Made by a program: the position numbers and the translations under genes
Shown: one piece after another, positions 42,101-57,431 of the stretch
Position numbering within the stretch: position 1 is the stretch's first letter
How the letters are laid out: each line of letters begins with the position of its first letter
The notes under the pieces: generated by a model
Told to the model about the DNA's origin: nothing
The model's input: only the letters and a program-made list of their open reading frames with translations
Databases searched by the model: none
Origin: Borreliella garinii
Lineage (GTDB): Bacteria > Spirochaetota > Spirochaetia > JABEVK01
DNA length: 61,235 bases
Assembly: GCA_020720765.1 (NCBI GenBank)
Contig: DYOB01000005.1
Location: 1-61,235 of the forward strand
Direction: 5' to 3'

Positions 42101-42469
42101 GACGGCTATAAGCTCGATCTCCACCAGGGCTTTCCTCGGAAGGCCAGCCACAGCAACCGTGCTTCGCGCGGGTTTATGAGGTCCGAAATGCTCCTCGTAA
42201 ACCTTGTTAAATTCTGCAAAATGTGCCATGTCCGTAAGAAAAGCTGTTGTCTTGACGACATGGGAAAAGTCCATCTTAGCCGCTCGAAGCACCGCTTCCA
42301 GGTTGAGGAGGACTTGGTGGGTTTGTTCCTGGATCCCTCCGCTAACGAGTTCGCCCGTTTTAAGGTCTATTCCCAGCTGACCGCTCAACCAGAGGTGTTT
42401 ACGCACCTTGATCCCTTGCGAGTACGGGCCAATCGCTTTAGGCGCCTCTTTTGATTCTATGATTTCCAT
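42092..42469 (-). CDS. ridA: RidA/YjgF enamine-imine deaminase
   Basis: APKAIGPYSQ, SGQL, PARSTVAV and LVEIE. Confidence 0.93.
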   Translation of the reverse strand: MEIIESKEAPKAIGPYSQGIKVRKHLWLSGQLGIDLKTGELVSGGIQEQTHQVLLNLEAVLRAAKMDFSHVVKTTAFLTDMAHFAEFNKVYEEHFGPHKPARSTVAVAGLPRKALVEIELIAVLE

Positions 42470-44010
42470 GATTCCTCCTTAAAAAAATTCCATCCTCTTT
42501 TCCATCGTGTTAACCAAGCTAACCGGGCACCCTCGCTAGGCCACCTTTCCAAGGTTGCGGCGGCGGGTTTCAACCATTCCTCCCACGTGTGAAAAAGAAG
42601 GGGGTTTTGAGGTTGAATCGGGTTAGCTTTAAGTTTCAAGTATTCCATCCGGCAGTCTTCCCACCGTGAAGTTGTTGGAATATCTGTTTGTGGAGTTTTA
42701 GGTTCGGGAAGTTCTCCGCCCCGGGTCAGTTCTTTCCAGTCCGCGCTTTCAGCAACGCGTAGTCCTTGAACGGGCCAGCCTGGGGAGGCTCGGACTCCCG
42801 GAGGAATCCAGGAATTCGAGAGTGCCCCCTCCATCCATTTAGCGTAGAGCGGCATGCGCTGGTCGCTGAGCCAAAGAGAGCCTTCCTCATCCCTTGTCCT
42901 CATGAGTTTCGAGGACCAGAAAGTTGAACTGTTCAGTGTCTCGAGGGGCGATAACCTGTTTACAGCCCTTTGGTGCAGTTTGTGGATAAGGCTGGGTCTT
43001 GAATGACTCCTCCAGCCCGAATAGGCCAGGTCCAGGCCCACCCAAATAATCTGTTTGACGCCGAGATATCCTGCTAGAGTACCTGCCGCCATGGCGACGC
43101 TTCCGCCGCTGTACAAATGGGGAAGGGAGTCCGCCTCGATATCCTTAAGCATGGGAATCGAGGAACCCGAAAGATAAACCCGGCCGCGGTACCTTCGAAG
43201 GACGCTTGGCGGCGTCACCCATTCGCCTACGAGCAGCGTATTATTAGGCAGGGTGAGGTCCATATGCCGGCTGTTCCAGTACTGCGAATCCATACTGACC
43301 ACGATGTCGGGTTCGACACCGTGACTGAGCAGGGTCGAAATGGCTGTGTCAACTGCAATCATCACAAAAGCTTTCTCTTTTGTAAGGGTTTTTAGCCGAG
43401 CAATTTGTCCTTCAAGACTAGGGCCGGCAGCAAAGATAACGGCGTTTTTTCCCTTGTAAACTTCTTTCAAATTGTTAAGAGAATAATATCCGCTGCACGA
43501 ACCGATATTTTTTTGTGCCTGCCTTCCCCATAAGGATCCAAAGCGCTCTAAAGTTCTTTCGTTGACGTTAAGTCTGTCCAAAGTATCGCATAGACTCTGG
43601 TGGGCTGTTTTGATCTCGGGTTCGTCCTCGAGCCCCGGGTGTATTAGGATGTGGATGTGTTCGGGAAGGAAACCTTGGAGAAGCGGCGTCGGCACTCCCT
43701 CCTGACCCGAGAGAAACACAATCCAAGGATCGCTCTCAGACCAACCGGGGTAGGACCGGGAGGCCTGGGCCCTTTCGTTATGCGGTTCCCAAGCCACCAG
43801 GACCCTTTCGGGCTGATGTTGTCGGAGAGCCTTGATAAGGTGTCCGCTTCCCCATCCTAGTAAAACCAGAGCCGCACCAGTCGTGAGGGCAGAGGCCCTT
43901 CTACGAGCGTCTTCATCAGGTTTATAGGAACTCGTGAGGGTTTTTCCCTTCCAGGTGATTCCAATTCCGCCAGGTCCGGGTTTTTGAACCCAATCGGAAC
44001 TTGGGATCAT
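42457..44010 (-). CDS. Maf/DUF115 (motility accessory factor, MptE-like) family protein
   Basis: AAGPSL, IAVDTA, PDIVVSMD, GGSVA and WVGLDLAY. Confidence 0.85.
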   Translation of the reverse strand: MIPSSDWVQKPGPGGIGITWKGKTLTSSYKPDEDARRRASALTTGAALVLLGWGSGHLIKALRQHQPERVLVAWEPHNERAQASRSYPGWSESDPWIVFLSGQEGVPTPLLQGFLPEHIHILIHPGLEDEPEIKTAHQSLCDTLDRLNVNERTLERFGSLWGRQAQKNIGSCSGYYSLNNLKEVYKGKNAVIFAAGPSLEGQIARLKTLTKEKAFVMIAVDTAISTLLSHGVEPDIVVSMDSQYWNSRHMDLTLPNNTLLVGEWVTPPSVLRRYRGRVYLSGSSIPMLKDIEADSLPHLYSGGSVAMAAGTLAGYLGVKQIIWVGLDLAYSGWRSHSRPSLIHKLHQRAVNRLSPLETLNSSTFWSSKLMRTRDEEGSLWLSDQRMPLYAKWMEGALSNSWIPPGVRASPGWPVQGLRVAESADWKELTRGGELPEPKTPQTDIPTTSRWEDCRMEYLKLKANPIQPQNPLLFHTWEEWLKPAAATLERWPSEGARLAWLTRWKRGWNFFKEESWKS

Positions 44011-47531: not shown

Positions 47532-47654
47532 ATGAGGATTACAGTGATTTTCGCCGCTATTCTTTTGGCGGTATTTGTCTCGGTGAGCGCACTTACAAGT
47601 GTCGTTGAACAACAGGTCCTAAATGTATCTTATGAGACTTCCGCCCCTTTATAA
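47532..47654 (+). CDS. Unannotated 40-aa small membrane/secreted peptide (MRITVIFAAILLAVFVSVSALTSVVEQQVLNVSYETSAPL)
   Basis: GGAAGG SD, ATG 47532, TAA 47652-54, N-terminal hydrophobic helix; below the ORF track cut-off. Confidence 0.55.
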   Translation: MRITVIFAAILLAVFVSVSALTSVVEQQVLNVSYETSAPL

Positions 47655-47726
47655 ATAAAAATATTGCCACACGGATTCATGAATAATCTCCTGGCATAGT
47701 TAGCTTTCATGGATTATGTTTGAACC

Positions 47727-49307
47727 ATGAACTATTATCAAAAGGCCGTACACGTAAGCCAGAGTCCAACCGCCCCGGGTAAACCCATTCCCCAAAAAGC
47801 CTTCGATATAACTGATTTATTTTCGGGTCCTTTGCGAGAAAATACAACGGATGATGCTCATTCGGTCCTCGATGAAAAACTCCGCAAGGCGTATTTTTGG
47901 GTAGTCAACCGGGCCCTTATCAGTCCTTTTTATGATATAGAATTCCATTCGGCTGTACCCCAGGAAATTCGTTTTGGAACCACCAGCAAACTTACCCTTC
48001 CTACCGGTCAAAGTTATTCAAGTTTTATTCTTCTTCCACTTTTAACCTTGATGGTACGCGGGAAATGTCTCTTTGTGGGTGGTCCAGGGCGTGGTAAAAC
48101 AGCCAGTGCTGTTTTGATGGGTTTGCTTGCCGGATACCCCCTCAAAGATATCCGGCGCGGAATCCAGCACGGACAGCCCCAGATGACGGTGTCGGACCTC
48201 TTGGGGAATCCCATTCCCTCAGATCTGATGAAAAGTGAAAACTTCGAATCTATCCGCATAGCCTGGAGAAAATGGCTTGGAATGAGGGTAAAAATCATCG
48301 ATGAATACAACCGGATTCCCACTAGAACCCAGAGTGCGCTGCTTACTGTTATGGCTGACAATTACGCCGAACTTATGGATCAAGTTTACGAATGCCCTGA
48401 TTCTGCTTGGTTTCTAACGGCAAATGACGACGCCGGAGGTGGGACCTACCAGGTCATCGAGGCCCTCCGCGACCGTATTGATGTCACAGTGCATGCCCCA
48501 CACTTTAACACGAGGTTTATCGGTGATCTTTTGGAGAGGGTGGAAAGTGATTACCACCCCGAAAAGGCAGTACCATCTGAAATAATTTTCTCAGAAGAAG
48601 AATTGAACCTGATCAATGACGCTGTCCGGGCCCAGCCCTTTCCCGACGGGATTAGAAAGAGGCTCGAATACTTTGCTGCCCAGTTTGAATTTATGGAAAG
48701 TGCCGGCGAAAGGATGGAATACAAAACCAAGGACCATATCAAACTCAGCGGTGAAGACTTCGGCCCTTGGTCGGAGAAGGAATCTTCCAAGGATAAAACC
48801 AAAGATCTCGGTTACCAGACTCAAAATGGATTAAGTGTCCGTAGCCTTTTTACATGCTTTAACTATATGAAAGCGCTTTCGTATTTCAGAGGAGCCCCGG
48901 AAGTCGAGCTCGAAGATGCACGGCAAATCCTGCCATTTGTTCTCCACGATAAACTTATCCCTTATAAAGAAGCCGCAATCTTTCAACAGGATGCTTACCA
49001 GGTCTTCCGTGTCGACCGTGTTTCCTGGATCAGAAAACTCTTCGATGAAAGTTGTAAACAGTACGAAAGCGCGGGTCTCGAAACTGCTGATATATCAGGG
49101 GCGCTTTCAAAGGAATTTATTAAAGGACTTGAAGGGTTGAGCGCGGGGGACACAAAGAAGAGAATGGCCCAAGTGGAGGCCCGTTTAAACGAAATAGCTT
49201 CGGGCAAAAAGATCTACGGACCAACCTTCGATGAGATTCTCCACCTCAAGTACCTCCATCAGCGCTACACGAATTATCTTGCCTGGGTCCAAACGAAGGC
49301 CCTATGA
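47727..49307 (+). CDS. MoxR-like AAA+ ATPase
   Basis: VGGPGRGKT Walker A, IIDEYNR Walker B, TQSALL, LTAN and EALRDR finger. Confidence 0.85.
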   Translation: MNYYQKAVHVSQSPTAPGKPIPQKAFDITDLFSGPLRENTTDDAHSVLDEKLRKAYFWVVNRALISPFYDIEFHSAVPQEIRFGTTSKLTLPTGQSYSSFILLPLLTLMVRGKCLFVGGPGRGKTASAVLMGLLAGYPLKDIRRGIQHGQPQMTVSDLLGNPIPSDLMKSENFESIRIAWRKWLGMRVKIIDEYNRIPTRTQSALLTVMADNYAELMDQVYECPDSAWFLTANDDAGGGTYQVIEALRDRIDVTVHAPHFNTRFIGDLLERVESDYHPEKAVPSEIIFSEEELNLINDAVRAQPFPDGIRKRLEYFAAQFEFMESAGERMEYKTKDHIKLSGEDFGPWSEKESSKDKTKDLGYQTQNGLSVRSLFTCFNYMKALSYFRGAPEVELEDARQILPFVLHDKLIPYKEAAIFQQDAYQVFRVDRVSWIRKLFDESCKQYESAGLETADISGALSKEFIKGLEGLSAGDTKKRMAQVEARLNEIASGKKIYGPTFDEILHLKYLHQRYTNYLAWVQTKAL

Positions 49308-50257
49308 AACTCTCGGGTAAGGTTGAAGAATTCTTAAAAATCCACCGTGACGAAGTCAATACACTTGTCCGCTCCAGTTCCTACCCGGGTTTTGACCAAG
49401 AAACAGCTGTATCAAACGGTTTGCTCTGGATGGAAAAAATTTTTCTTTTTTCGGGAAACTTAGGTTTTCAACCTTTAGTCCTCAGTCTCCAACTCACCCA
49501 AAAGGGATTGCTACAAAACAACTCTAACTTTCTTGCACCGATTGAAAGCTGGATTCGAGCCTTTCCTCGTGCTTTTTCAACTGATTCCATGGATGTCCTT
49601 ATAGACTGGACCCATCTCTTGCTGAGACTACGGCCTTATCCTGAAGTCCTCAACCGAGTTTTATCCTGGGTCACTCAGGTCTCTGGAAAAGATTTGAATG
49701 CTGATGCAGTACGTCGGTTATTGACAGCAGCTTCTTGGCTAGCCGGGCTTTCACCCTGGCGTCAAGCGGGTATGGAAAGCCTTGATGCCCTGCCGGTTTC
49801 GGTGTCTCGTGAGCTGAAAAATCTTGCTACTGGGACTTCAAACCCAGGGATTTGGTCTTCTCTCAAGATCAACCCTTTAGGGAATCAGTCCTGGACAAGG
49901 CTTATCGGCGGTGTTCAAGGGTTTTCAGGTGAATGGGCGAGTCCCCCTAAGGTTTTGAGTTTTAATGGAAAACTCCTGGTGCAGGCAGATTCTAGGACTT
50001 GGGAAATAGTTTCAGATTATTTCGGTAGCCTTCTGGTCCCATACAACGAAGAATTCCAGCAAAACCCTTCGGATCAAAAGAACACTGTGCAGTGGCGTGT
50101 CGCCGAAGATAACCTAATCAGCCCGAAAAATCTCCGCTATCCCTTCCCCTATGGTGACCCTCCTGGACTCGAAGGCGTAGAACTCTCTTCAGGATTGGCG
50201 GCGGTTGTAAGCCTGGAATTTTTTTCGGTTGTCCTCACCTTTAGGGGTATCGCGTGA
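49304..50257 (+). CDS. Hypothetical protein of the MoxR-VWA operon (helical N-terminus, beta-rich C-terminus)
   Basis: 317-aa ORF with ATGA/GTGA overlaps on both sides; IGGVQGFSGEWASPP motif. Confidence 0.75.
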   Translation: MKLSGKVEEFLKIHRDEVNTLVRSSSYPGFDQETAVSNGLLWMEKIFLFSGNLGFQPLVLSLQLTQKGLLQNNSNFLAPIESWIRAFPRAFSTDSMDVLIDWTHLLLRLRPYPEVLNRVLSWVTQVSGKDLNADAVRRLLTAASWLAGLSPWRQAGMESLDALPVSVSRELKNLATGTSNPGIWSSLKINPLGNQSWTRLIGGVQGFSGEWASPPKVLSFNGKLLVQADSRTWEIVSDYFGSLLVPYNEEFQQNPSDQKNTVQWRVAEDNLISPKNLRYPFPYGDPPGLEGVELSSGLAAVVSLEFFSVVLTFRGIA

Positions 50258-52005
50258 CCGAACCCGAAAGAGCTCTCCAGAAACTCTGGGCTGGAGATTG
50301 GACAACCGCTACGAAACTTTGGAGTCCCTATCTGAGGCTTCGTTATCCGTATTTTCTGTGGACCAAAGACCAGGAAAATGCCGAGGGTTTGACCGGAAGT
50401 TTTGCCATGATCCGGTTTATGGACACCCAGGTTGTGGTAAGCCTCCGTCAAGTTATACTCGAAGGGCTTGAGACTTTTGGTGTAATGATCTTAGCCCACG
50501 AGATAGGTCACCACATTTATGCCCCCGGAGATCTTACCCAACACGGACTTATGCTCGGTAGGATGAAGCGGATGTTACCGGGGGCCGAGACCCGGGCTGC
50601 AGAGATTGCCAACCTGTACACCGATTTGTTTATCAACAACAGGTTAAAAATCCGCCATGGTTTACCTCTTGAACAAATCTATGAAAAAATTTCCAATGAG
50701 CAGCAGACATCCCGGCTCTTTTTATGGTACTTGAGGATTTACGAGCTCCTTTGGGACTTAAAACAGAAAACCCTCGCTAAAGGAGACTTACTACCTGAAG
50801 AAGAAGGGGATGCAATTTTAGCGAGCCGCATTATCCGACGGTTTGCCGAACATCCGGTTCAAGCCGCAGGGCGTTTCGCCGCTTTGGCTTTATCCAGGCT
50901 CGAAGCGGATAAGGCTGGATCTAAAGAGAACCGCTTAAAATGGATGGATACCTTAAATTCGGCCCAAGGGTCGGAAATCCCTGAAGGGCTGATTTTTGAT
51001 GACATCGAGGGTGAAGATACCCAGCACCCTGCACTTGATACAACCCTGAATGATCTTAACTCCGAGGAGGCACCATCCTCTGAGAAGAAGGAAATTACTG
51101 GGGGCCCGGGCCAAAAACGGTCTCCCGACGCTTTTGTTCATTTGTTATACGATATGGGTTTGAAGATTCCGGTTGAAGACGCGGTGATGAAATATTACAG
51201 GGAATTGGCTGCACCACTTTTAATTCCATTTCCTAAACGTTCACGACCTCCATCGACGGAAACTTTGCCTGAAGGTCTGGATATTTGGGACGTAGGACGG
51301 CCTTTGGAAAAAATCGACTGGTTGGAATCCCTTCTCAGAGGTCCGTACGTCATCCCGGGAGTTACAACCGTCGAAAGGCTGGAAGGTGAGAGCCCGGGGG
51401 CCGAGAAGACCCATAAACCCCTGAACCTCGATATTTATGTCGACAGTTCGGGTTCTATCCCCGACCCCAGGGTCAATTTCAGTCCCTTATGCTTGGCGGG
51501 TGCGGTGATGGCTACGTCTGCCCTACGTGCGGGGGCTAAGGTCAGGGTCGTCCTTTGGAGTGATACGGGACAGGTAAAAAGCACGAAAGGTTTTACCCGG
51601 GATTTGAAGGACATCTTTCATACTCTTACAAGTTACTTCGGCTCCGGAACAGCCTTCCCGATACAAAACATGACCAACTTTTACGAGGCACCCACAGGGG
51701 CCGACCGTCTGGAAAAAGGGGAAAAAAACCATATTCTTGTTATCAGCGACGAAGGGATCAACACGATGTTGGTTTCTTCCGAAACTCCCGAGGCTGTCGA
51801 TGTTCGCCTTCGGGGCATCTTGGAAAAGGCGGGCGGCGGAGGCAGTCTCGTCCTCAATCTCTACGATCAAACGTGGATCAACGGTAATATAGGAAGACGT
51901 TTCACCAGCCAAGGATGGGTGGTTTATAGAGTACAGAGTTGGGAAGAGACGGTAATCTTTGCTAAGGATTTCAGCAAAAAAACCTGGGGAGGAAAGATTG
52001 AATAG
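50254..52005 (+). CDS. HExxH metallopeptidase-like domain fused to a C-terminal VWA domain
   Basis: LAHEIGHH followed by ANLYTDLFINNRL; MIDAS IYVDSSGS, SGTAFP and ILVISDEG. Confidence 0.85.
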   Translation: MTEPERALQKLWAGDWTTATKLWSPYLRLRYPYFLWTKDQENAEGLTGSFAMIRFMDTQVVVSLRQVILEGLETFGVMILAHEIGHHIYAPGDLTQHGLMLGRMKRMLPGAETRAAEIANLYTDLFINNRLKIRHGLPLEQIYEKISNEQQTSRLFLWYLRIYELLWDLKQKTLAKGDLLPEEEGDAILASRIIRRFAEHPVQAAGRFAALALSRLEADKAGSKENRLKWMDTLNSAQGSEIPEGLIFDDIEGEDTQHPALDTTLNDLNSEEAPSSEKKEITGGPGQKRSPDAFVHLLYDMGLKIPVEDAVMKYYRELAAPLLIPFPKRSRPPSTETLPEGLDIWDVGRPLEKIDWLESLLRGPYVIPGVTTVERLEGESPGAEKTHKPLNLDIYVDSSGSIPDPRVNFSPLCLAGAVMATSALRAGAKVRVVLWSDTGQVKSTKGFTRDLKDIFHTLTSYFGSGTAFPIQNMTNFYEAPTGADRLEKGEKNHILVISDEGINTMLVSSETPEAVDVRLRGILEKAGGGGSLVLNLYDQTWINGNIGRRFTSQGWVVYRVQSWEETVIFAKDFSKKTWGGKIE

Positions 52006-52549
52006 TATCCATTGGGAAGAACTCGACAACCACCTCAGAAGTATCAACACGCCCTGGTCTATCGGCGAGGCTGTTCCAATAAAGACGCTTTTCAACGAAC
52101 TCTTTCTCAGGCAATCGGGCCGGTTTCCGGATTACCAACTTTACAATTCCCTTATGGAACCGCTTGCGGAACCTGCATCAAAACTCCTCAAGTTGGTGCT
52201 GTGGATACTGACACAACCGATTTTTTATCTGAGTGGAGAATGGACAAGAGGGTTTTGGAATCTTCTAGAGAAGGTGGGAGTTCTTGCATCCTATGTTGCA
52301 CCGGGACTTTTTTTAAAAGACCCTGAGCGGCGTGAAGAGTTGGTGCGTCTAGTTATGTCGGGTATGAATGTCGGTGTTGAAGGTGAAACTCCTGAAAAAG
52401 GCCTGGAAAGAAGCGTGACTCTCGACTCAGTAGCGAGGGCCAAAATTCTCCAGGAAACCCGTGCGGCCCAGGCCCGTGCCCAAGCCATCCGTGAAGCCTT
52501 GGCCAAACAGCAGGCGGAAGAAGCTGCGAGCAAATACAACAGGGAATAG
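51998..52549 (+). CDS. Hypothetical helical protein with a C-terminal coiled coil (TTG start at 51998)
   Basis: GGAGG SD; DPERREELVR, GETPE...LDS and AEEAASKYNRE. Confidence 0.75.
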   Translation: MNSIHWEELDNHLRSINTPWSIGEAVPIKTLFNELFLRQSGRFPDYQLYNSLMEPLAEPASKLLKLVLWILTQPIFYLSGEWTRGFWNLLEKVGVLASYVAPGLFLKDPERREELVRLVMSGMNVGVEGETPEKGLERSVTLDSVARAKILQETRAAQARAQAIREALAKQQAEEAASKYNRE

Positions 52550-52557
52550 GGGTAAAG

Positions 52558-53895
52558 ATGCAGGATTTGATTTGGCCAGAATATATTAGCAGGATTCCAG
52601 GGTGGCAGGAAAATTTCAGGGAATCCATAATACTTTTAAATAACGAAGATGCACCTGTCTGGACAGGGTTCTGCGGCGACAGGAGGACTCGGGAGGATGA
52701 GGCTTTTATCGACGCCTTCGCTAATACATTACGTTACCCTTGGAATCGTTTTTCCTCTGATGTACCCGAAGGGATTTTAAATTGGGTTCAGGAGAGGAAG
52801 GATGACACGTTATGGTTTCGTAAAAATCTTCAGTTTCAGGATTTGGATCAATGGACGTCGCTCCCAACGATGACCCGTCACGACCTTGCATTGAGACTGG
52901 AAGAAATCATACCCGAGAACGCCGACTTGAAGGGGCTTGTGATCAACCCGACTTCCGGGACTTCAGGCCAGGTGCTCCTATGTCCCAACCATCCGCGGGC
53001 AGTGGGGTGTTACGATGCTGTGCTGGAATATGCCCTTGAACTCTACGGTATTCATTGGGATTTATCCCCGGGAAAAACAGTAGCCGTCCAGGTATGTTAC
53101 CAAACGGAGACACTGACGTATTGCACCACGCATGGTCGGCATAAGGGGGCTGGTTTTGCAAAAGTCAACCTCCATCCGGCTTATTGGTCCCGGGCCCAGG
53201 CCTGGTTTGACAAGGTCCGGCCGCAGATCCTTACGGGGGACCCCTGGAGTTTTCAGCAAATGGTAAAGTTGGGAATTAAAACTAAGCCCAAAGCGCTCCT
53301 TTCTACCAGCCTCCAGGTGACCGGGGAGCTTCGGGGTTTATGGGAGCAATTCTTTCAATGTCCGGTGATCGATCTGTATTCCCTTAACGAGACCGGGCCC
53401 TTGGGAATTTCACTCCCGGGGGAACCTTCTGTTTTCCGTCAGATCTCCGAGGATGTTTTTCTGGAAACCGACCCGATAACCGGTGAACTCCTCGTCACCG
53501 GGGGAAGAAACCCCTACCTTCCGCTTTTTCGGTACCGTACAGGGGATAAAGCAAGTTTTGTCCAGGGGAATGATTCTCATCCACGGTTCCAGCTTATACA
53601 ATCGCGCCAGCTTGTAGTTTGGGAAAAGGCGGATGGGTCGCACACCCAGCCGCTGGAAGTATCCCGGATTTTACGCGACTACCCCGAGGTTCTTAAACAT
53701 AACATCGAAGTTATCAACCCGAGGCATATTGTCTTGCATGTAAAAGTTGAGGGCGAAGCGCAAACGATAATACAAGAGGTTGAAGAAAGGCTTGCTTCTT
53801 TCTGGGAAGGTAACCTGGAGGCTGGGAAATCGGGACGCCGAGGGTTCGCATACACCTCGTCTAGTACAGTCCGCGTCGATACCTTGGTCGAATGA
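52558..53895 (+). CDS. CapK/phenylacetate-CoA ligase-like adenylate-forming enzyme
   Basis: PTSGTSG P-loop, DLYSLNETG and PLFRYRTGD. Confidence 0.85.
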   Translation: MQDLIWPEYISRIPGWQENFRESIILLNNEDAPVWTGFCGDRRTREDEAFIDAFANTLRYPWNRFSSDVPEGILNWVQERKDDTLWFRKNLQFQDLDQWTSLPTMTRHDLALRLEEIIPENADLKGLVINPTSGTSGQVLLCPNHPRAVGCYDAVLEYALELYGIHWDLSPGKTVAVQVCYQTETLTYCTTHGRHKGAGFAKVNLHPAYWSRAQAWFDKVRPQILTGDPWSFQQMVKLGIKTKPKALLSTSLQVTGELRGLWEQFFQCPVIDLYSLNETGPLGISLPGEPSVFRQISEDVFLETDPITGELLVTGGRNPYLPLFRYRTGDKASFVQGNDSHPRFQLIQSRQLVVWEKADGSHTQPLEVSRILRDYPEVLKHNIEVINPRHIVLHVKVEGEAQTIIQEVEERLASFWEGNLEAGKSGRRGFAYTSSSTVRVDTLVE

Positions 53896-54557
53896 ATATT
53901 TTTAGCGTAGAATTTTATCTCTTTGACCTTCTGGGATGGAAACCCAGCCTGATGGAAGTCTTAGGTGTAACCAGCGGATTTATGACCGTCTACCTCACTT
54001 CGAAGGAGCGGCTATCGAGTTGGCCCTGGGGAATGGCAAATGCACTCTTTTTTACCCTTGTGCTTTTTCAAGTTCAACTCTACTGGGACACCTTTCTCAA
54101 TGTCTTTTATTTTGTAGCGAGCGCTGTCGGTTGGTACGTTTGGCTCCACCCAGGAAAAAAAGACGCAACCCAAGAAAGCAGGGGAAGGGGGAGCCTTGCG
54201 GTGAGCGGACTTATCTTTCCTTGGCATTTTATTATTATTGGTATCATCGGAATCGGTACTGTCACGGGAGGATTCCTCGGAGCCCGTATTCATCTTTGGC
54301 TGCCCATGATCTTCAGCCAACAGGCCTCTTTACCCTACCTTGATGCTTTTGTTACTTTAACTTCACTGACAGCCTTCGGTCTCCAGTTAAGAAAAAAATG
54401 GGAGAGTTGGGTCCTTTGGATATTGGTTGATATCGTCTCCGTCATCCTTTTTTCATACAGAGGAATTTATTTGATGGCTTTCATCTACGCTGTTTTCGGT
54501 GGGGTTGCTTACTTGGGGTTAGGTCAATGGACCACGGCGAAGAAGCAAAAACAATGA
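53892..54557 (+). CDS. pnuC: Nicotinamide riboside transporter PnuC family
   Basis: EVLGV, SWPWG, LPYLDAFVT and KKWESWVLWILVD; multiple TMs. Confidence 0.9.
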   Translation: MNIFSVEFYLFDLLGWKPSLMEVLGVTSGFMTVYLTSKERLSSWPWGMANALFFTLVLFQVQLYWDTFLNVFYFVASAVGWYVWLHPGKKDATQESRGRGSLAVSGLIFPWHFIIIGIIGIGTVTGGFLGARIHLWLPMIFSQQASLPYLDAFVTLTSLTAFGLQLRKKWESWVLWILVDIVSVILFSYRGIYLMAFIYAVFGGVAYLGLGQWTTAKKQKQ

Positions 54558-55531
54558 ACCATACTGCACTTATTATTGGGAAATTCATGCCCTTCCATCA
54601 GGGTCACATCGAGTTGGTCGATTGGACCTTAACATGGGCTAGGGAGGTAATCGTCCTAGTCGGAGTCTTGGCAAAAGAACCGATAGGCGGGCCGCTTCGA
54701 TGGGAGTGGGTTAGCAGGTACTACCTGAACAATCCTCGAGTCCGGGTGGAATACACGGATGAAGCGCTCCCGACGGCTCCGGTACCCGACCCGGAAGTGA
54801 GTAAAGTTTGGGGTGCCTACTTAAAAAAAAGATTCCCTGACGCAACTTGTATCAGTGCGAGCGAAGGGTACGCTCCGATGGTCGCAGGTGCCATGGGAAT
54901 CAGCTCAAAGGTTTTTGATATTCAACGTGAAAAGGTGAATATCTCCGCCACTAAAATCAGGGCAAACCCCTGGAAATATTGGGAGTATTTGCCAGAGGTC
55001 GTGCGACCGTATTATAGAAAAAAGGTCGCACTTGTGGGTGCTGAATCCACAGGGAAAACAACGCTTGCCGAAAAATTGGCACGGCATTTTTCGACCTTAT
55101 GGGTTCCGGAACTGGCTCGTGCCATTATCGATAAAGCCGGGGGATATTCCGAAAAACTTCTGGGGAACATTGTTTGGAGCCAGGAAGAGGCTGTAAGGAA
55201 TGCAGCTGACAAGTTCCGCCGTTGGCTTTTTGTGGATTCGGACTTTCTGACGACGTGTTTTTACGCAAGGAAATTCTCCGGACCATCCTTTGTACCGCCC
55301 ATCACACCGCTTCTAAAATCTACCCATGATTACGACCTCTACCTTTTTTGCGAACCCGACATCCCCTATAAGAAAGACTCTCAACGGTCGGAAACCGATA
55401 ACCGTGCAGAGGATTCGCAGACGATGTTGGAAATGTACCAAAAAACAAAAACTCCCCTCTACCATGTTAAAGGTATAGGGGAGAATCGACTGAAAAATGC
55501 GTTGGAAATCCTTGGAAGTATCACTGATTGA
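54554..55531 (+). CDS. nadR: NadR-like bifunctional NMN adenylyltransferase/ribosylnicotinamide kinase (no HTH)
   Basis: GKFMPFHQGH (HxGH), NISATKIR, GAESTGKTT and YDLYL; ATGA overlap with pnuC. Confidence 0.9.
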   Translation: MNHTALIIGKFMPFHQGHIELVDWTLTWAREVIVLVGVLAKEPIGGPLRWEWVSRYYLNNPRVRVEYTDEALPTAPVPDPEVSKVWGAYLKKRFPDATCISASEGYAPMVAGAMGISSKVFDIQREKVNISATKIRANPWKYWEYLPEVVRPYYRKKVALVGAESTGKTTLAEKLARHFSTLWVPELARAIIDKAGGYSEKLLGNIVWSQEEAVRNAADKFRRWLFVDSDFLTTCFYARKFSGPSFVPPITPLLKSTHDYDLYLFCEPDIPYKKDSQRSETDNRAEDSQTMLEMYQKTKTPLYHVKGIGENRLKNALEILGSITD

Positions 55532-56363: not shown

Positions 56364-57431
56364 TTATTGTACCTTGATCAGTGTGACTTCGAAGATAAGC
56401 CAAGAATTGGGAGGAATGACAGGAGGTGATCCTCTTTCACCGTACCCCAACTGGGGAGGAATTATTAAAGTGCGTTCCTCACCGGGCCGCATATCGATTA
56501 AAGCCTCGTCCCAACCCGAGATGACCATACCTATCCCAACTTGAAAATCGATAGGCTCTGAACGGCGGAAACTGGAGTCGAAGACACTGCCGTCTAAGAG
56601 TTTGCCTTCATAGTGTGCGCTGATGGTTGCACCTTTGGCGGGTTTGTTTCCATTTCCCGACTTTTTAACGATGTAGCGCAGACCCGAGCTGGTAATAGTT
56701 GCACCCGGCCAGCGTGATTCGATTTCAGCCATAACTGAAGCATTCCTCTCCGCTACGGCACGAATCTGCTGGGCCTGCATATCATCCATCATGGTCTGAA
56801 AACTTACTGCTGTCGGTCTAAAGGCTTCGGCTTCTGTCCCGTTGCGGATGATCGAAAGAGTGAGGATTTGGTCGCCTTTCTGAATGCTGTCTACCACGTC
56901 CTGGCCCTTAATCACGTGTCCAAAAACAGTATGTTTTCCATCAAGGTGGGGAGTGGGAACATGGGTAATAAAAAATTGCGAACCATTGGTTCCGGGACCA
57001 GCATTTGCCATGCTCAATATTCCGGGTCTATCGTGTTTCAGATCTGTGATTTCATCAGGAAATTTATAACCTGGGCCGCCCGTACCATTACCCAAGGGAT
57101 CTCCGCCCTGGATCATAAAACCGGCAATTACACGGTGGAAAACCAATCCGTCGTAAAAGGGTTGTCCTCTTCTCACCTGAGGTTCAAGCGCTCCCTCTGC
57201 CAATCCCACAAAATTTGCAACAGTGACGGGGGTTTTCTTGAATTCAAGAGAGAGTATAATATCACCCTTGTTGGTTTTCATCAGGGCAAATAATCCATTT
57301 CCCTGGTTTTTTATAAAGTCCACGCTTTCTCCTTGTATGGCCTGAGTTGAATTGTTACTCTGAGACTGGCTTCCGCACGATGTTAATACTCCGAAGATCA
57401 TGGGGAGAACCAAGAATAAATTTCGTTTCAT
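56364..57431 (-). CDS. Cyclophilin-FKBP dual-family peptidyl-prolyl isomerase, lipoprotein
   Basis: Lipobox VLTSC; cyclophilin [15 protein letters not shown]...SMANAG...NGSQFFIT; FKBP HYEGKL.DG..FDSS...VISGWDE...IPPNS.LIFEV. Confidence 0.95.

Follow-up and report, generated by a model that had tools for sequence, protein, structure and literature searches.

A widely conserved gene set combining a predicted MoxR ATPase, metallopeptidase-VWA protein, PaaK-like ligase and NadR: a candidate protein-modification or maturation pathway

Introduction

What might seven tightly coupled genes, among them a MoxR-type ATPase gene, an adenylate-forming ligase gene and a pair of NAD-salvage genes, do together, and do they form one system at all? 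The question is raised by a contig of 61,235 nucleotides (DYOB01000005.1 of assembly GCA_020720765.1, deposited as Borreliella garinii; GTDB lineage Bacteria; Spirochaetota; Spirochaetia; JABEVK01), hereafter the window, by which we mean that whole stretch of DNA. Seven forward-strand genes, here termed g1 to g7, lie between its positions 47727 and 55531. A reading of the sequence made without database searches, referred to below as the original prediction, had proposed that they form a coupled operon and a candidate undescribed system. We found them to be a widely conserved set of six to seven genes that is undescribed, and consider it very likely that the operon constitutes one functional system that includes the nicotinamide mononucleotide (NMN) adenylyltransferase (NMNAT). 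This system is probably an unstudied protein-modification or maturation pathway. Established here are the components with their intact catalytic motifs, the fact that they are inherited together, and the invariant tail of g4. The features concerned are the following.

47727-49307, forward strand: g1, predicted MoxR-type AAA+ ATPase of 526 aa, with N- and C-terminal extensions around an AAA_3 core (Pfam, PDB and motifs)
49304-50257, forward strand: g2, 317 aa, helical N-domain (residues ~1-190) and beta-rich C-domain (~197-313) in an AlphaFold 2 (AF2) model
50254-52005, forward strand: g3, HExxH domain (residues ~1-222), low-confidence linker (223-390) and VWA domain with a complete metal ion-dependent adhesion site (MIDAS) (391-580) (alignment and AF2 model)
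50497-50511, forward strand: HEIGH codons of g3 (residues 82-86) (translation and alignment)
51442-51456, forward strand: MIDAS DSSGS codons of g3 (residues 397-401) (translation and alignment)
51998-52549, forward strand: g4, ~183 aa, variable N-terminal half and conserved Arg/Glu-rich C-terminal half, ending ...KxxRE-COOH (alignment)
52541-52546, forward strand: terminal Arg-Glu codons of g4, followed by the stop codon at 52547-52549 (translation and alignment)
52558-53895, forward strand: g5, predicted PaaK-like (ANL superfamily) adenylate-forming ligase, extended by ~100 aa at its N-terminus (profile and motifs)
53892-54557, forward strand: g6, PnuC-family transporter, with nicotinamide riboside (NR) as the predicted substrate (Pfam and NCBIfam)
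54554-55531, forward strand: g7, predicted NadR-type NMNAT and ribosylnicotinamide kinase (RNK), without a helix-turn-helix domain (NCBIfam, Pfam and motifs)

A coupled operon of seven genes

The open reading frame (ORF) listing of the window gives all seven genes on the forward strand, and every coordinate, overlap and gap in the original prediction proved correct. The stop of g1 (49307) and the start of g2 (49304) overlap in an ATGA, the end of g2 (50257) and the start of g3 (50254) share a GTGA, and ATGA overlaps are found again between g5 (end 53895) and g6 (start 53892), and between g6 (end 54557) and the ATG of g7 at 54554, with an earlier in-frame ATG at 54527. The TTG start of g4 (51998) overlaps the end of g3 (52005) by 8 nt and has a GGAGG 8 nt 5' of it; the listing also holds an alternative, longer start at 51959. 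Between g4 (end 52549) and g5 (start 52558) there is a gap of 8 nt. The motifs that had been called intact, namely Walker A and B, HEIGH, DSSGS, TSGTSG/YSLNE/RYRTGD and HQGH, are likewise all present in the translations.

The gene set recurs across phyla

Relatives of g3 were collected by a pattern scan of one genome per species, by which at least 572 stretches were confirmed. The locus counts that follow refer to the best 80 of these at least 572 loci, searched by tblastn with the seven window proteins; the alignments used throughout are hand-picked subsets, and ORF starts in high-GC loci are approximate. A g1 homologue lay no more than 10 kb upstream of g3 in 50 of the 60 loci with at least 4 kb of upstream flank, whilst g4 and g5 were each present in 50 of the 65 loci with at least 2.5 kb of downstream flank. 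Where at least 6 kb of downstream sequence was available (56 loci), g5 was found in 44, g4 in 42, NadR in 35 and PnuC in 23, and all 35 loci having NadR or PnuC also hold g5. Both g4 and g5 were present in 41 of the same 56 loci, g4 only in one, g5 only in three and neither in 11. The two genes lie within 400 nt of each other on one strand in 42 of 50 loci, and in many of them their stop and start codons overlap.

The usual order is g1-g2-g3-g4-g5-(PnuC)-NadR. By record title, the carriers belong to Leptospira and other Spirochaetota, Blastocatellia/Acidobacteriota, Anaerolineales/Chloroflexota, Verrucomicrobiota and Planctomycetales, with further loci in Longimicrobium, Syntrophaceae, Pseudomonadota (Steroidobacter/Peristeroidobacter/Cellvibrio) and a metagenome-assembled genome (MAG) labelled Clostridia. 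As the same gene set recurs in the same order across phyla, the seven-gene unit is more than a product of chance. The original prediction had rested its claim of a unit on the five core genes, g1 to g5, being found together elsewhere, and they co-occur in many phyla, in the same order.

Some genomes carry a g1-g2-g3 locus without g4 and g5. In all five of those tested, both genes were encoded elsewhere, adjacent to each other in four and on separate short contigs in the fifth; PnuC lay beside the g4-g5 pair in three, and NadR too in one of these. As g4 and g5 adjoin in such split genomes, g4 goes with the ligase and not with the VWA gene. Judged by gene content, the set therefore appears to consist of two modules that occur together or apart: module A, comprising g1-g2-g3, and module B, comprising g4-g5 with NadR and often PnuC.

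The distribution is patchy among close relatives, g3 being present in 3 of 41 genomes among the window's kin and in 28 of 41 in a Leptospira clade. In a Leptospira RefSeq genome, the ORF calls for six genes coincide with six deposited proteins of consecutive accession numbers, named ATPase, hypothetical, VWA domain-containing, hypothetical, phenylacetate--CoA ligase family and AAA family ATPase. Two closed Leptospira genomes with a shorter form of g3 have the arrangement g1-g2-g3-g4(...KYNRE)-g5-NadR, without PnuC. Clustering of the ORFs of the 80 loci revealed no further family in more than ~14 loci, and those that came closest were mostly overlapping-frame artefacts.

Variant neighbours were lineage-specific: large repeat proteins with CarboxypepD_reg, an S8 peptidase and, lastly, a DAO oxidoreductase. 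The last of these is an FAD-dependent enzyme of the DAO family, encoded between g2 and g3 in two Anaerolineales loci (L023:7499-8863 and L028:8616-9959; E 6e-32 and 4e-33), by which the system may have been enlarged in this lineage. Several Leptospira clusters (L107:5671-6369 and L108:5434-6015, also L056, L061 and L065) have an extra ORF of ~190-230 aa directly upstream of g1, which overlaps g1 by 4 nt in L107 and matches no Pfam family. An Acidobacteria locus (L011:8834-9943) holds a YhcG-type PDDEXK nuclease gene (DUF1016) between g2 and g3, probably a mobile insertion.

The g4 family ends in Arg-Glu

The g4 proteins show a feature that the original prediction had not recorded. In an alignment of 29 sequences (28 of the 55 loci with a match, plus the window protein), the terminal glutamate is invariant, and in every sequence ...KxxRE is the last stretch before the stop codon. 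When 1.84 billion representatives (50% identity) were searched with the profile, 736 relatives were returned at E ≤ 1e-3; among the best 150 of the 736, which likewise share no more than 50% identity, the chain ends in E in 144 cases, in RE in 131, in REW in three and in RD in one. As the chain end is fixed in this way, the free terminal residue itself would be read or chemically used. The three exceptions in Arg-Glu-Trp (P0185, P0186 and P0252) encode one extra aromatic residue after the Glu.

No Pfam family was found for g4, only scattered chance-level matches, and NCBIfam matched none of the 29 aligned proteins; the ESM Atlas gave no usable match. Longer, fused forms of g4 were not found by the profile search, which is weak evidence.

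g5 is predicted to be a PaaK-like adenylating enzyme

The profile of the g5 family matched phenylacetate-CoA ligases in the PDB (9s3l, 2.1e-20; 4r1l, 2.2e-17) as well as a PaaK-like ligase (6siw, 3e-11), and 27 of 30 relatives carry PF00501, although Pfam yields nothing for the window protein. The motifs TSGTSG, YSLNE and RYRTGD can be read from its translation. The NCBIfam equivalog scores of g5 lie far under the cut-offs (37.6 against 300). From its sequence we assign g5 to the PaaK-like ANL enzymes, as the original prediction of an ANL-type ligase had it, with a resemblance to phenylacetate-CoA ligase that is at family level only. A co-fold of g5 with ATP, Mg and residues 14-196 of g4 gave ipSAE values of 0.29 and 0.23 (mark 0.32; without controls), which speak neither for nor against an interaction.

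NadR is co-inherited with the cluster

In the window, g6 passes the cut-offs of both PnuC models (PF04973, 138.8 bits against 27.3; TIGR01528, 88.7 bits against 42.45). The NadR assignment of g7 also holds, though at scores below the equivalog cut-offs: TIGR01526 matched at E 3.3e-50 and 171.2 bits (cut-off 341.15) and NF005988 at 138.3 bits (cut-off 201), alongside a match to AAA_28 at 97.6 bits. Its motifs HQGH, ISATKIR and GAESTGKT are intact, and the NMNAT motifs are invariant in 16 of 16 cluster homologues. In five Anaerolineales loci the NMNAT domain alone is retained, with GKFxPxHxGH and the SxxxxR motif intact.

Three sets of genomes bear on the inheritance of NadR. Firstly, NadR is found in-cluster across at least eight differently labelled lineages, and is both single-copy and in-cluster in five of five genomes (two Leptospira, Steroidobacter, Peristeroidobacter and one closed metagenomic chromosome). 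Secondly, in the genus-level clade of Leptospira sp. 'Mane', the 28 of 41 genomes that carry g3 are exactly the 28 that carry NadR, located 2-3 kb downstream of g3 on the same strand, and neither g3 nor NadR was matched in the other 13; these genomes are kin rather than independent, and completeness figures are not given for them. Thirdly, among 40 relatives of the window's genome, NadR matches above 360 bits were confined to the three genomes that have g3, namely that of the window and those of two relatives, with weaker full-length NadR in three other relatives and NMNAT-only genes in two more.

As NadD, NAD synthetase (NadE) and NadA are encoded elsewhere in the window's genome, its NadR is accessory and not the housekeeping route; a nicotinate phosphoribosyltransferase was not found in this genome, which is 97.8% complete. 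A dedicated clade of system NadRs is not supported, since free-standing and phage NadRs interleave with them in a tree of 19 rows, in which deep branches are weak and sampling is thin. Recruitment or replacement of NadR thus appears to have happened repeatedly which, as far as thin sampling allows, argues for need rather than common descent. Taken together, the co-occurrence data suggest that NadR, minimally its NMNAT domain, is an integral, co-inherited part of the set and not an appended neighbour, a second point that goes beyond the original prediction.

The MoxR ATPase and its two partners

For g1, the MoxR assignment was borne out by a match to AAA_3 (PF07726; 31.5 bits, cut-off 27) and to the solved MoxR-like structure 2r44 (E 2.1e-7); AAA_lid_2 stayed under its cut-off (19.5 bits against 22.7). 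Walker A (GGPGRGKT) and Walker B (IIDE) are readable in the translation, and median identity to the homologues in 67 related loci, across phyla, is 57%. We therefore regard g1 as a predicted MoxR-family AAA+ ATPase.

The g2 protein, left without a family in the original prediction as g4 had been, matched no Pfam or NCBIfam family here either. An ORF of at least 302 aa nevertheless fills the g2 position in 67 of 67 loci having g1 and g3. By tblastn, g2 gave 32 hits among the 80 loci and is too divergent in most. An alignment of 30 rows, made from 29 of the 67 loci picked for one clear ORF plus the window protein, indicates that the 29 locus ORFs, which are 15-50% identical to the window protein, do belong to one family. 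The AF2 model (pLDDT 91.4) had no Foldseek match in the PDB at E ≤ 1e-3, and the best Z in a wide VIA search, 6.2, equals background, with cyclin-like helices and propeller-blade-like sheets among the hits (the domains were searched together). The family profiles of g2 and g3 had no significant match among PDB sequences. In its model, g2 would thus be a two-domain protein without a recognisable fold.

The claim that g3 combines HExxH and VWA domains held up well. All 19 aligned sequences share H82, E83, H86, D397, S399, S401, T466 and D499, of which T466 and D499 are taken, by their position, to be MIDAS residues. In the AF2 model (pLDDT 77.5), the HExxH helix lies in an N-domain, which a linker of low confidence joins to a VWA fold at the C-terminus. 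This VWA fold was matched by Foldseek (best E 5.3e-5) and by VIA (best Z 14.9, rmsd 2.8, 162 aligned residues), with 101 chains at Z ≥ 8, the 50 entries listed being VWA or I domains. Structural matches included Rpn10, integrin I domains, NorD and the MIDAS domains of Rea1/MDN1; the NorD VWA was found as 9qh8_G (VIA, Z 12.4) and 9qhe (Foldseek). As the full-length model was searched, the VWA domain took up all PDB structure matches. In BFVD, g3 gave full-length matches to phage proteins named CobT-like, VWFA or 'Metallopeptidase' (best E 7e-8), and residues 1-225 pointed in the ESM Atlas to DUF2201_N clusters (feature score 0.90), a lead only. The window protein had no Pfam match even at E ≤ 10, PF13203 and PF09967 included; these two models match none of the 19 relatives at E ≤ 1, and 8 of the 19 match VWA_2, weakly. 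Thus g3 consists of an HExxH domain and a VWA domain with a full MIDAS and, because of the full-length BFVD matches, the VWA fold and the DUF2201_N lead, it appears to have a metallopeptidase-vWA architecture, in a branch too divergent for the Pfam models.

Clustered at 90% identity, the g3 family comprises at least 1567 groups, whose names go no further than 'VWA domain-containing' or 'hypothetical'. No relative was found by tblastn in 50,697 phage records, and of 39 pattern matches in viral contigs none was confirmed. One Leptospira clade has two forms of g3, one of ~570-580 aa matched at ~700 bits in eight genomes, the other an open frame of 544-608 aa (mostly 548-550) matched in two pieces in 20 genomes. 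In a Thermoflexales MAG (L057:7660-9855), the neighbour of a g3 relative is not a MoxR protein but a classical AAA ATPase that has a variant winged-helix domain; this may be a different system using the same VWA-peptidase.

Flanking genes and operon boundaries

Upstream, a gap of 205 bp separates g1 from an M23/LysM peptidase gene, and downstream, g7 is followed by a convergent sodA (Mn/Fe superoxide dismutase). The upstream gap contains one further feature.

47553-47572, forward strand: terminator-like hairpin after the M23/LysM peptidase gene, at the upstream edge of the operon (pattern scan only)

Sites found by the promoter and terminator pattern scan were no more numerous in the region than in shuffles. 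The same gap holds a small ORF of ~40 codons (47533-47655, forward strand; MRITVIFAAILLAVFVSVSALTSVVEQQ..., read by eye), which is hydrophobic and signal-peptide-like and overlaps the hairpin. An Rfam search of the whole window found a single tRNA and no NAD riboswitch.

The flanks are of housekeeping type, with genes for an MptE-like protein, a SpoVD/PBP2-type transpeptidase, signal peptidase I, the M23/LysM peptidase, SodA and a cyclophilin-FKBP isomerase. The isomerase is a 355-aa ORF (56364-57431, reverse strand) in which cyclophilin-type and FKBP-type peptidyl-prolyl isomerase domains are fused. The MptE-like (PF01973) protein, of 517 aa (42457-44010, reverse strand), has a weak PseD-like match and lies upstream of the penicillin-binding protein (PBP) gene.

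Relation to known systems

Like NorQ-NorD, CbbQ-CbbO, RavA-ViaA, CoxD-CoxE and Bat, the cluster couples a MoxR gene to a VWA gene with a complete MIDAS. It differs from these MoxR/VWA chaperone pairs in the invariant HExxH domain of g3 and in its further members, since g2, the RE-COOH protein, the ANL ligase and the NMNAT all have no place in those systems; nor does it encode a metal-enzyme client. The Bat operon of Bacteroides and Leptospira, which has DUF58 and BatA-E, was set aside for its different partners, the CobS/CobT cobaltochelatase for want of CobN and for the HExxH motif found here, and, provisionally, VMAP ternary systems because no effector domains were recognised in g2 or g4.

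The protein Pup, with PafA, Mpa and Dop, and LysW, with LysX and LysK, provide cases in which a protein with a conserved C-terminal Glu has an ATP-dependent ligase as its neighbour. By analogy only, the present cluster follows the logic of Pup, LysW and pearlins: a protein ending in Glu next to a ligase, together with an AAA+ ATPase and a metallopeptidase as candidate for deconjugation or release. Its ligase, however, is of ANL/PaaK type and not glutamine-synthetase-like (PafA) or ATP-grasp (LysX), g4 is ~185 aa long and unrelated in sequence, no proteasome or tailoring enzymes are encoded, and there is a link to an NMNAT. For carrier chemistry, the pearlin carrier-peptide pathway, as far as the accessible part of its description goes, is a precedent (PMC9303977).

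A described counterpart of the g1-g3 pair is found in phages. In the accessible part of their account, Iyer and colleagues describe a metallopeptidase-vWA fusion partnered with MoxR in group 2.2 jumbo phages, with an N-terminal metallopeptidase and a C-terminal vWA domain, an order that g3 probably shares (PMC7824862). At the sequence level, g3 matched neither the phage proteins nor the DUF2201 models in the searches above. For the phage pairs a role in virion assembly is proposed, and that part of the account does not report them with g2, g4, a ligase or NadR (PMC7824862). Compared with plain PnuC-NadR salvage, the likeness lies in a g6 that passes the PnuC cut-offs and a g7 with NMNAT and RNK domains and intact motifs. 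The difference is that the pair here is accessory, embedded in and co-inherited with the MoxR/ligase cluster, that some lineages can do without PnuC or the RNK domain, and that g7 falls below its equivalog cut-off.

No Pfam, NCBIfam or PADLOC family describes the full gene set, and no paper describing it was found in the literature searched, subscription journals and bioRxiv supplements lying outside its reach; the accessible part of PMC9503650 holds no such vWA/NadR cluster. The view that no characterised system has this composition thus stands for the family libraries and literature searched. The core of MoxR and metallopeptidase-vWA is already known; what is new is the addition of g2, the RE-COOH protein g4, the PaaK-like ligase and a co-inherited NMNAT.

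Discussion

How might these parts work together? We infer, tentatively and with the balance leaning somewhat against it, that activation of the g4 tail by g5 forms the core of the mechanism. The g4-g5 linkage that is kept when the system is split supports this reading. Spending a nucleotide, g5 would turn the free C-terminal Glu of g4 into an acyl-adenylate and would then join it to an acceptor, which might be a protein amine, as in Pup-like tagging, or alternatively a small molecule for whose assembly g4 serves as the carrier, in the manner of LysW or pearlins. The MoxR hexamer, with g2 and g3, would bind the acidic tail or the conjugate via the MIDAS metal and remodel it using ATP, and the HExxH domain of g3 would cleave or release it. 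NadR, together with PnuC where present, would sustain the NAD+/NMN pool used by module B.

A number of observations weigh against this reading. No direct evidence ties the g4 tail to the g5 active site, and the invariant terminal acidic residue fits a MIDAS ligand equally well, such ligands being acidic in integrin ligands and in Rea1-UBL. ANL/PaaK enzymes are known to act on small carboxylic acids, and we know of no case in which one acts on a protein C-terminus. Neither an acceptor nor an NAD-consuming enzyme has been recognised, whilst the alignment of 30 g2 sequences has few invariant residues and no catalytic-looking one. With regard to gene content, 11 of the 56 loci lack g4 and g5 nearby (five of those genomes are the ones checked further above), and in Blastocatellia-type loci g4 sits beside g3 with PnuC-NadR between g4 and g5. 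Lastly, g3, g4 and g5 were not found in the five relatives of the window's genome that have a free NadR or NMNAT, and in the tree the system NadRs do not form one clade: three free-standing and two phage NadRs interleave with them, and two of them are joined, at support 100/99, by a free-standing NadR from a spirochaete.

The alternative that survives best is a dedicated MoxR-VWA maturation chaperone like NorQ/NorD, CbbQ/CbbO or CoxD/CoxE, which we consider possible, if doubtful. Its client would be g5 or NadR, g4 would be an adaptor with its Glu on the g3 MIDAS metal, and g5 would convert some small carboxylic acid into a small metabolite related to NAD, as befits a family whose members usually act on small acids. 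MoxR-VWA pairs are established as client-specific chaperones, and the likeness of the g3 VWA to that of NorD, the invariance of its full MIDAS and the resemblance of the g4 terminal Arg-Glu to acidic MIDAS ligands would all suit such a role, as would the position of g4, which overlaps g3 in the window and stays by it in Blastocatellia-type loci. In split genomes, however, g4 accompanies g5 and not g3 (adjacent in four of five); moreover, a chaperone leaves the invariant HExxH without a role, and the cluster encodes no metal-cofactor client.

A more specific form of tail activation would make module B an NAD-tied chemistry of the protein C-terminus, a bacterial tagging analogous to pupylation and built from unrelated parts; we judge this distinctly unlikely. 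Here, g5 would adenylate the Arg-Glu-COOH of g4, possibly with AMP taken from NAD+ and with release of NMN, and g4 would be conjugated to targets or to a group derived from a pyridine nucleotide, with the complex of MoxR, g2 and the VWA-HExxH protein as reader, unfoldase and deconjugase. If AMP came from NAD+ and NMN were released, this would account for NMNAT being the one salvage step kept in every lineage. The three g4 relatives ending in REW hint, on this reading, at a terminal residue that can be removed or added.

The original prediction had also suggested a conflict or stress system, for which we found no positive evidence. MoxR-vWA cores have been proposed to anchor nucleoside triphosphate-dependent conflict systems, rarely with a metallopeptidase as effector, according to the accessible part of that work (PMC7159879). 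An NAD-centred anti-phage system on this pattern, in which MoxR-VWA would be sensor and switch, the HExxH domain the effector and NadR/PnuC would refill NAD, could draw on the patchy presence among close relatives (3/41 and 28/41), on NAD-salvage genes that are accessory beside a complete housekeeping route and on a NadR that was apparently recruited more than once. It is nevertheless very unlikely: none of the five core proteins has a PADLOC match at E ≤ 1, the phage records and viral contigs searched hold no g3 relatives, the flanks (PBP, signal peptidase, M23 peptidase, SodA, isomerase) are of housekeeping type, the ORF clusters of the 80 loci include no recurrent mobile or defence neighbours, and g1 is unusually conserved across phyla, unlike fast-evolving defence genes.

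That an NR-salvage operon and an unrelated MoxR-VWA set are mere chance neighbours is hardly credible and already largely refuted by the counts: PnuC-NadR does form a salvage pair sufficient in itself in other settings, phages among them, relatives where the system was not found do have free NadRs, and PnuC is absent from many clusters (present in 23 of 56), but NadR is in-cluster across the lineages listed above, its presence and absence coincide with those of g3 in all 41 Leptospira-clade genomes, its sole copy sits in the cluster in five of five genomes, Chloroflexi clusters keep the NMNAT-only form, and PnuC/NadR accompany g4-g5 in split systems. As to the remodel-cleave-ligate machine first suggested for the operon, we infer that the system could work in this way.

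Should the g4 tail prove to be activated, g5 would be the first ANL-type enzyme to act on a protein C-terminus, and the system would represent a new bacterial conjugation or carrier-protein chemistry. Should the tail instead be a MIDAS ligand, g4 and its partner would form a defined adaptor-client pair in which to study how MoxR-VWA machines choose their substrates. Either way, the g2 and g4 families, now annotated as 'hypothetical protein', would gain a context. MoxR-VWA pairs rank with the commonest AAA+ systems and also with those about which least is understood, and here one comes with a fixed and informative set of partners. The carriers number hundreds of species, culturable Leptospira and Steroidobacter included, and the RE-COOH tail beside an adenylating ligase, together with the link to an NMNAT, poses concrete biochemical questions.

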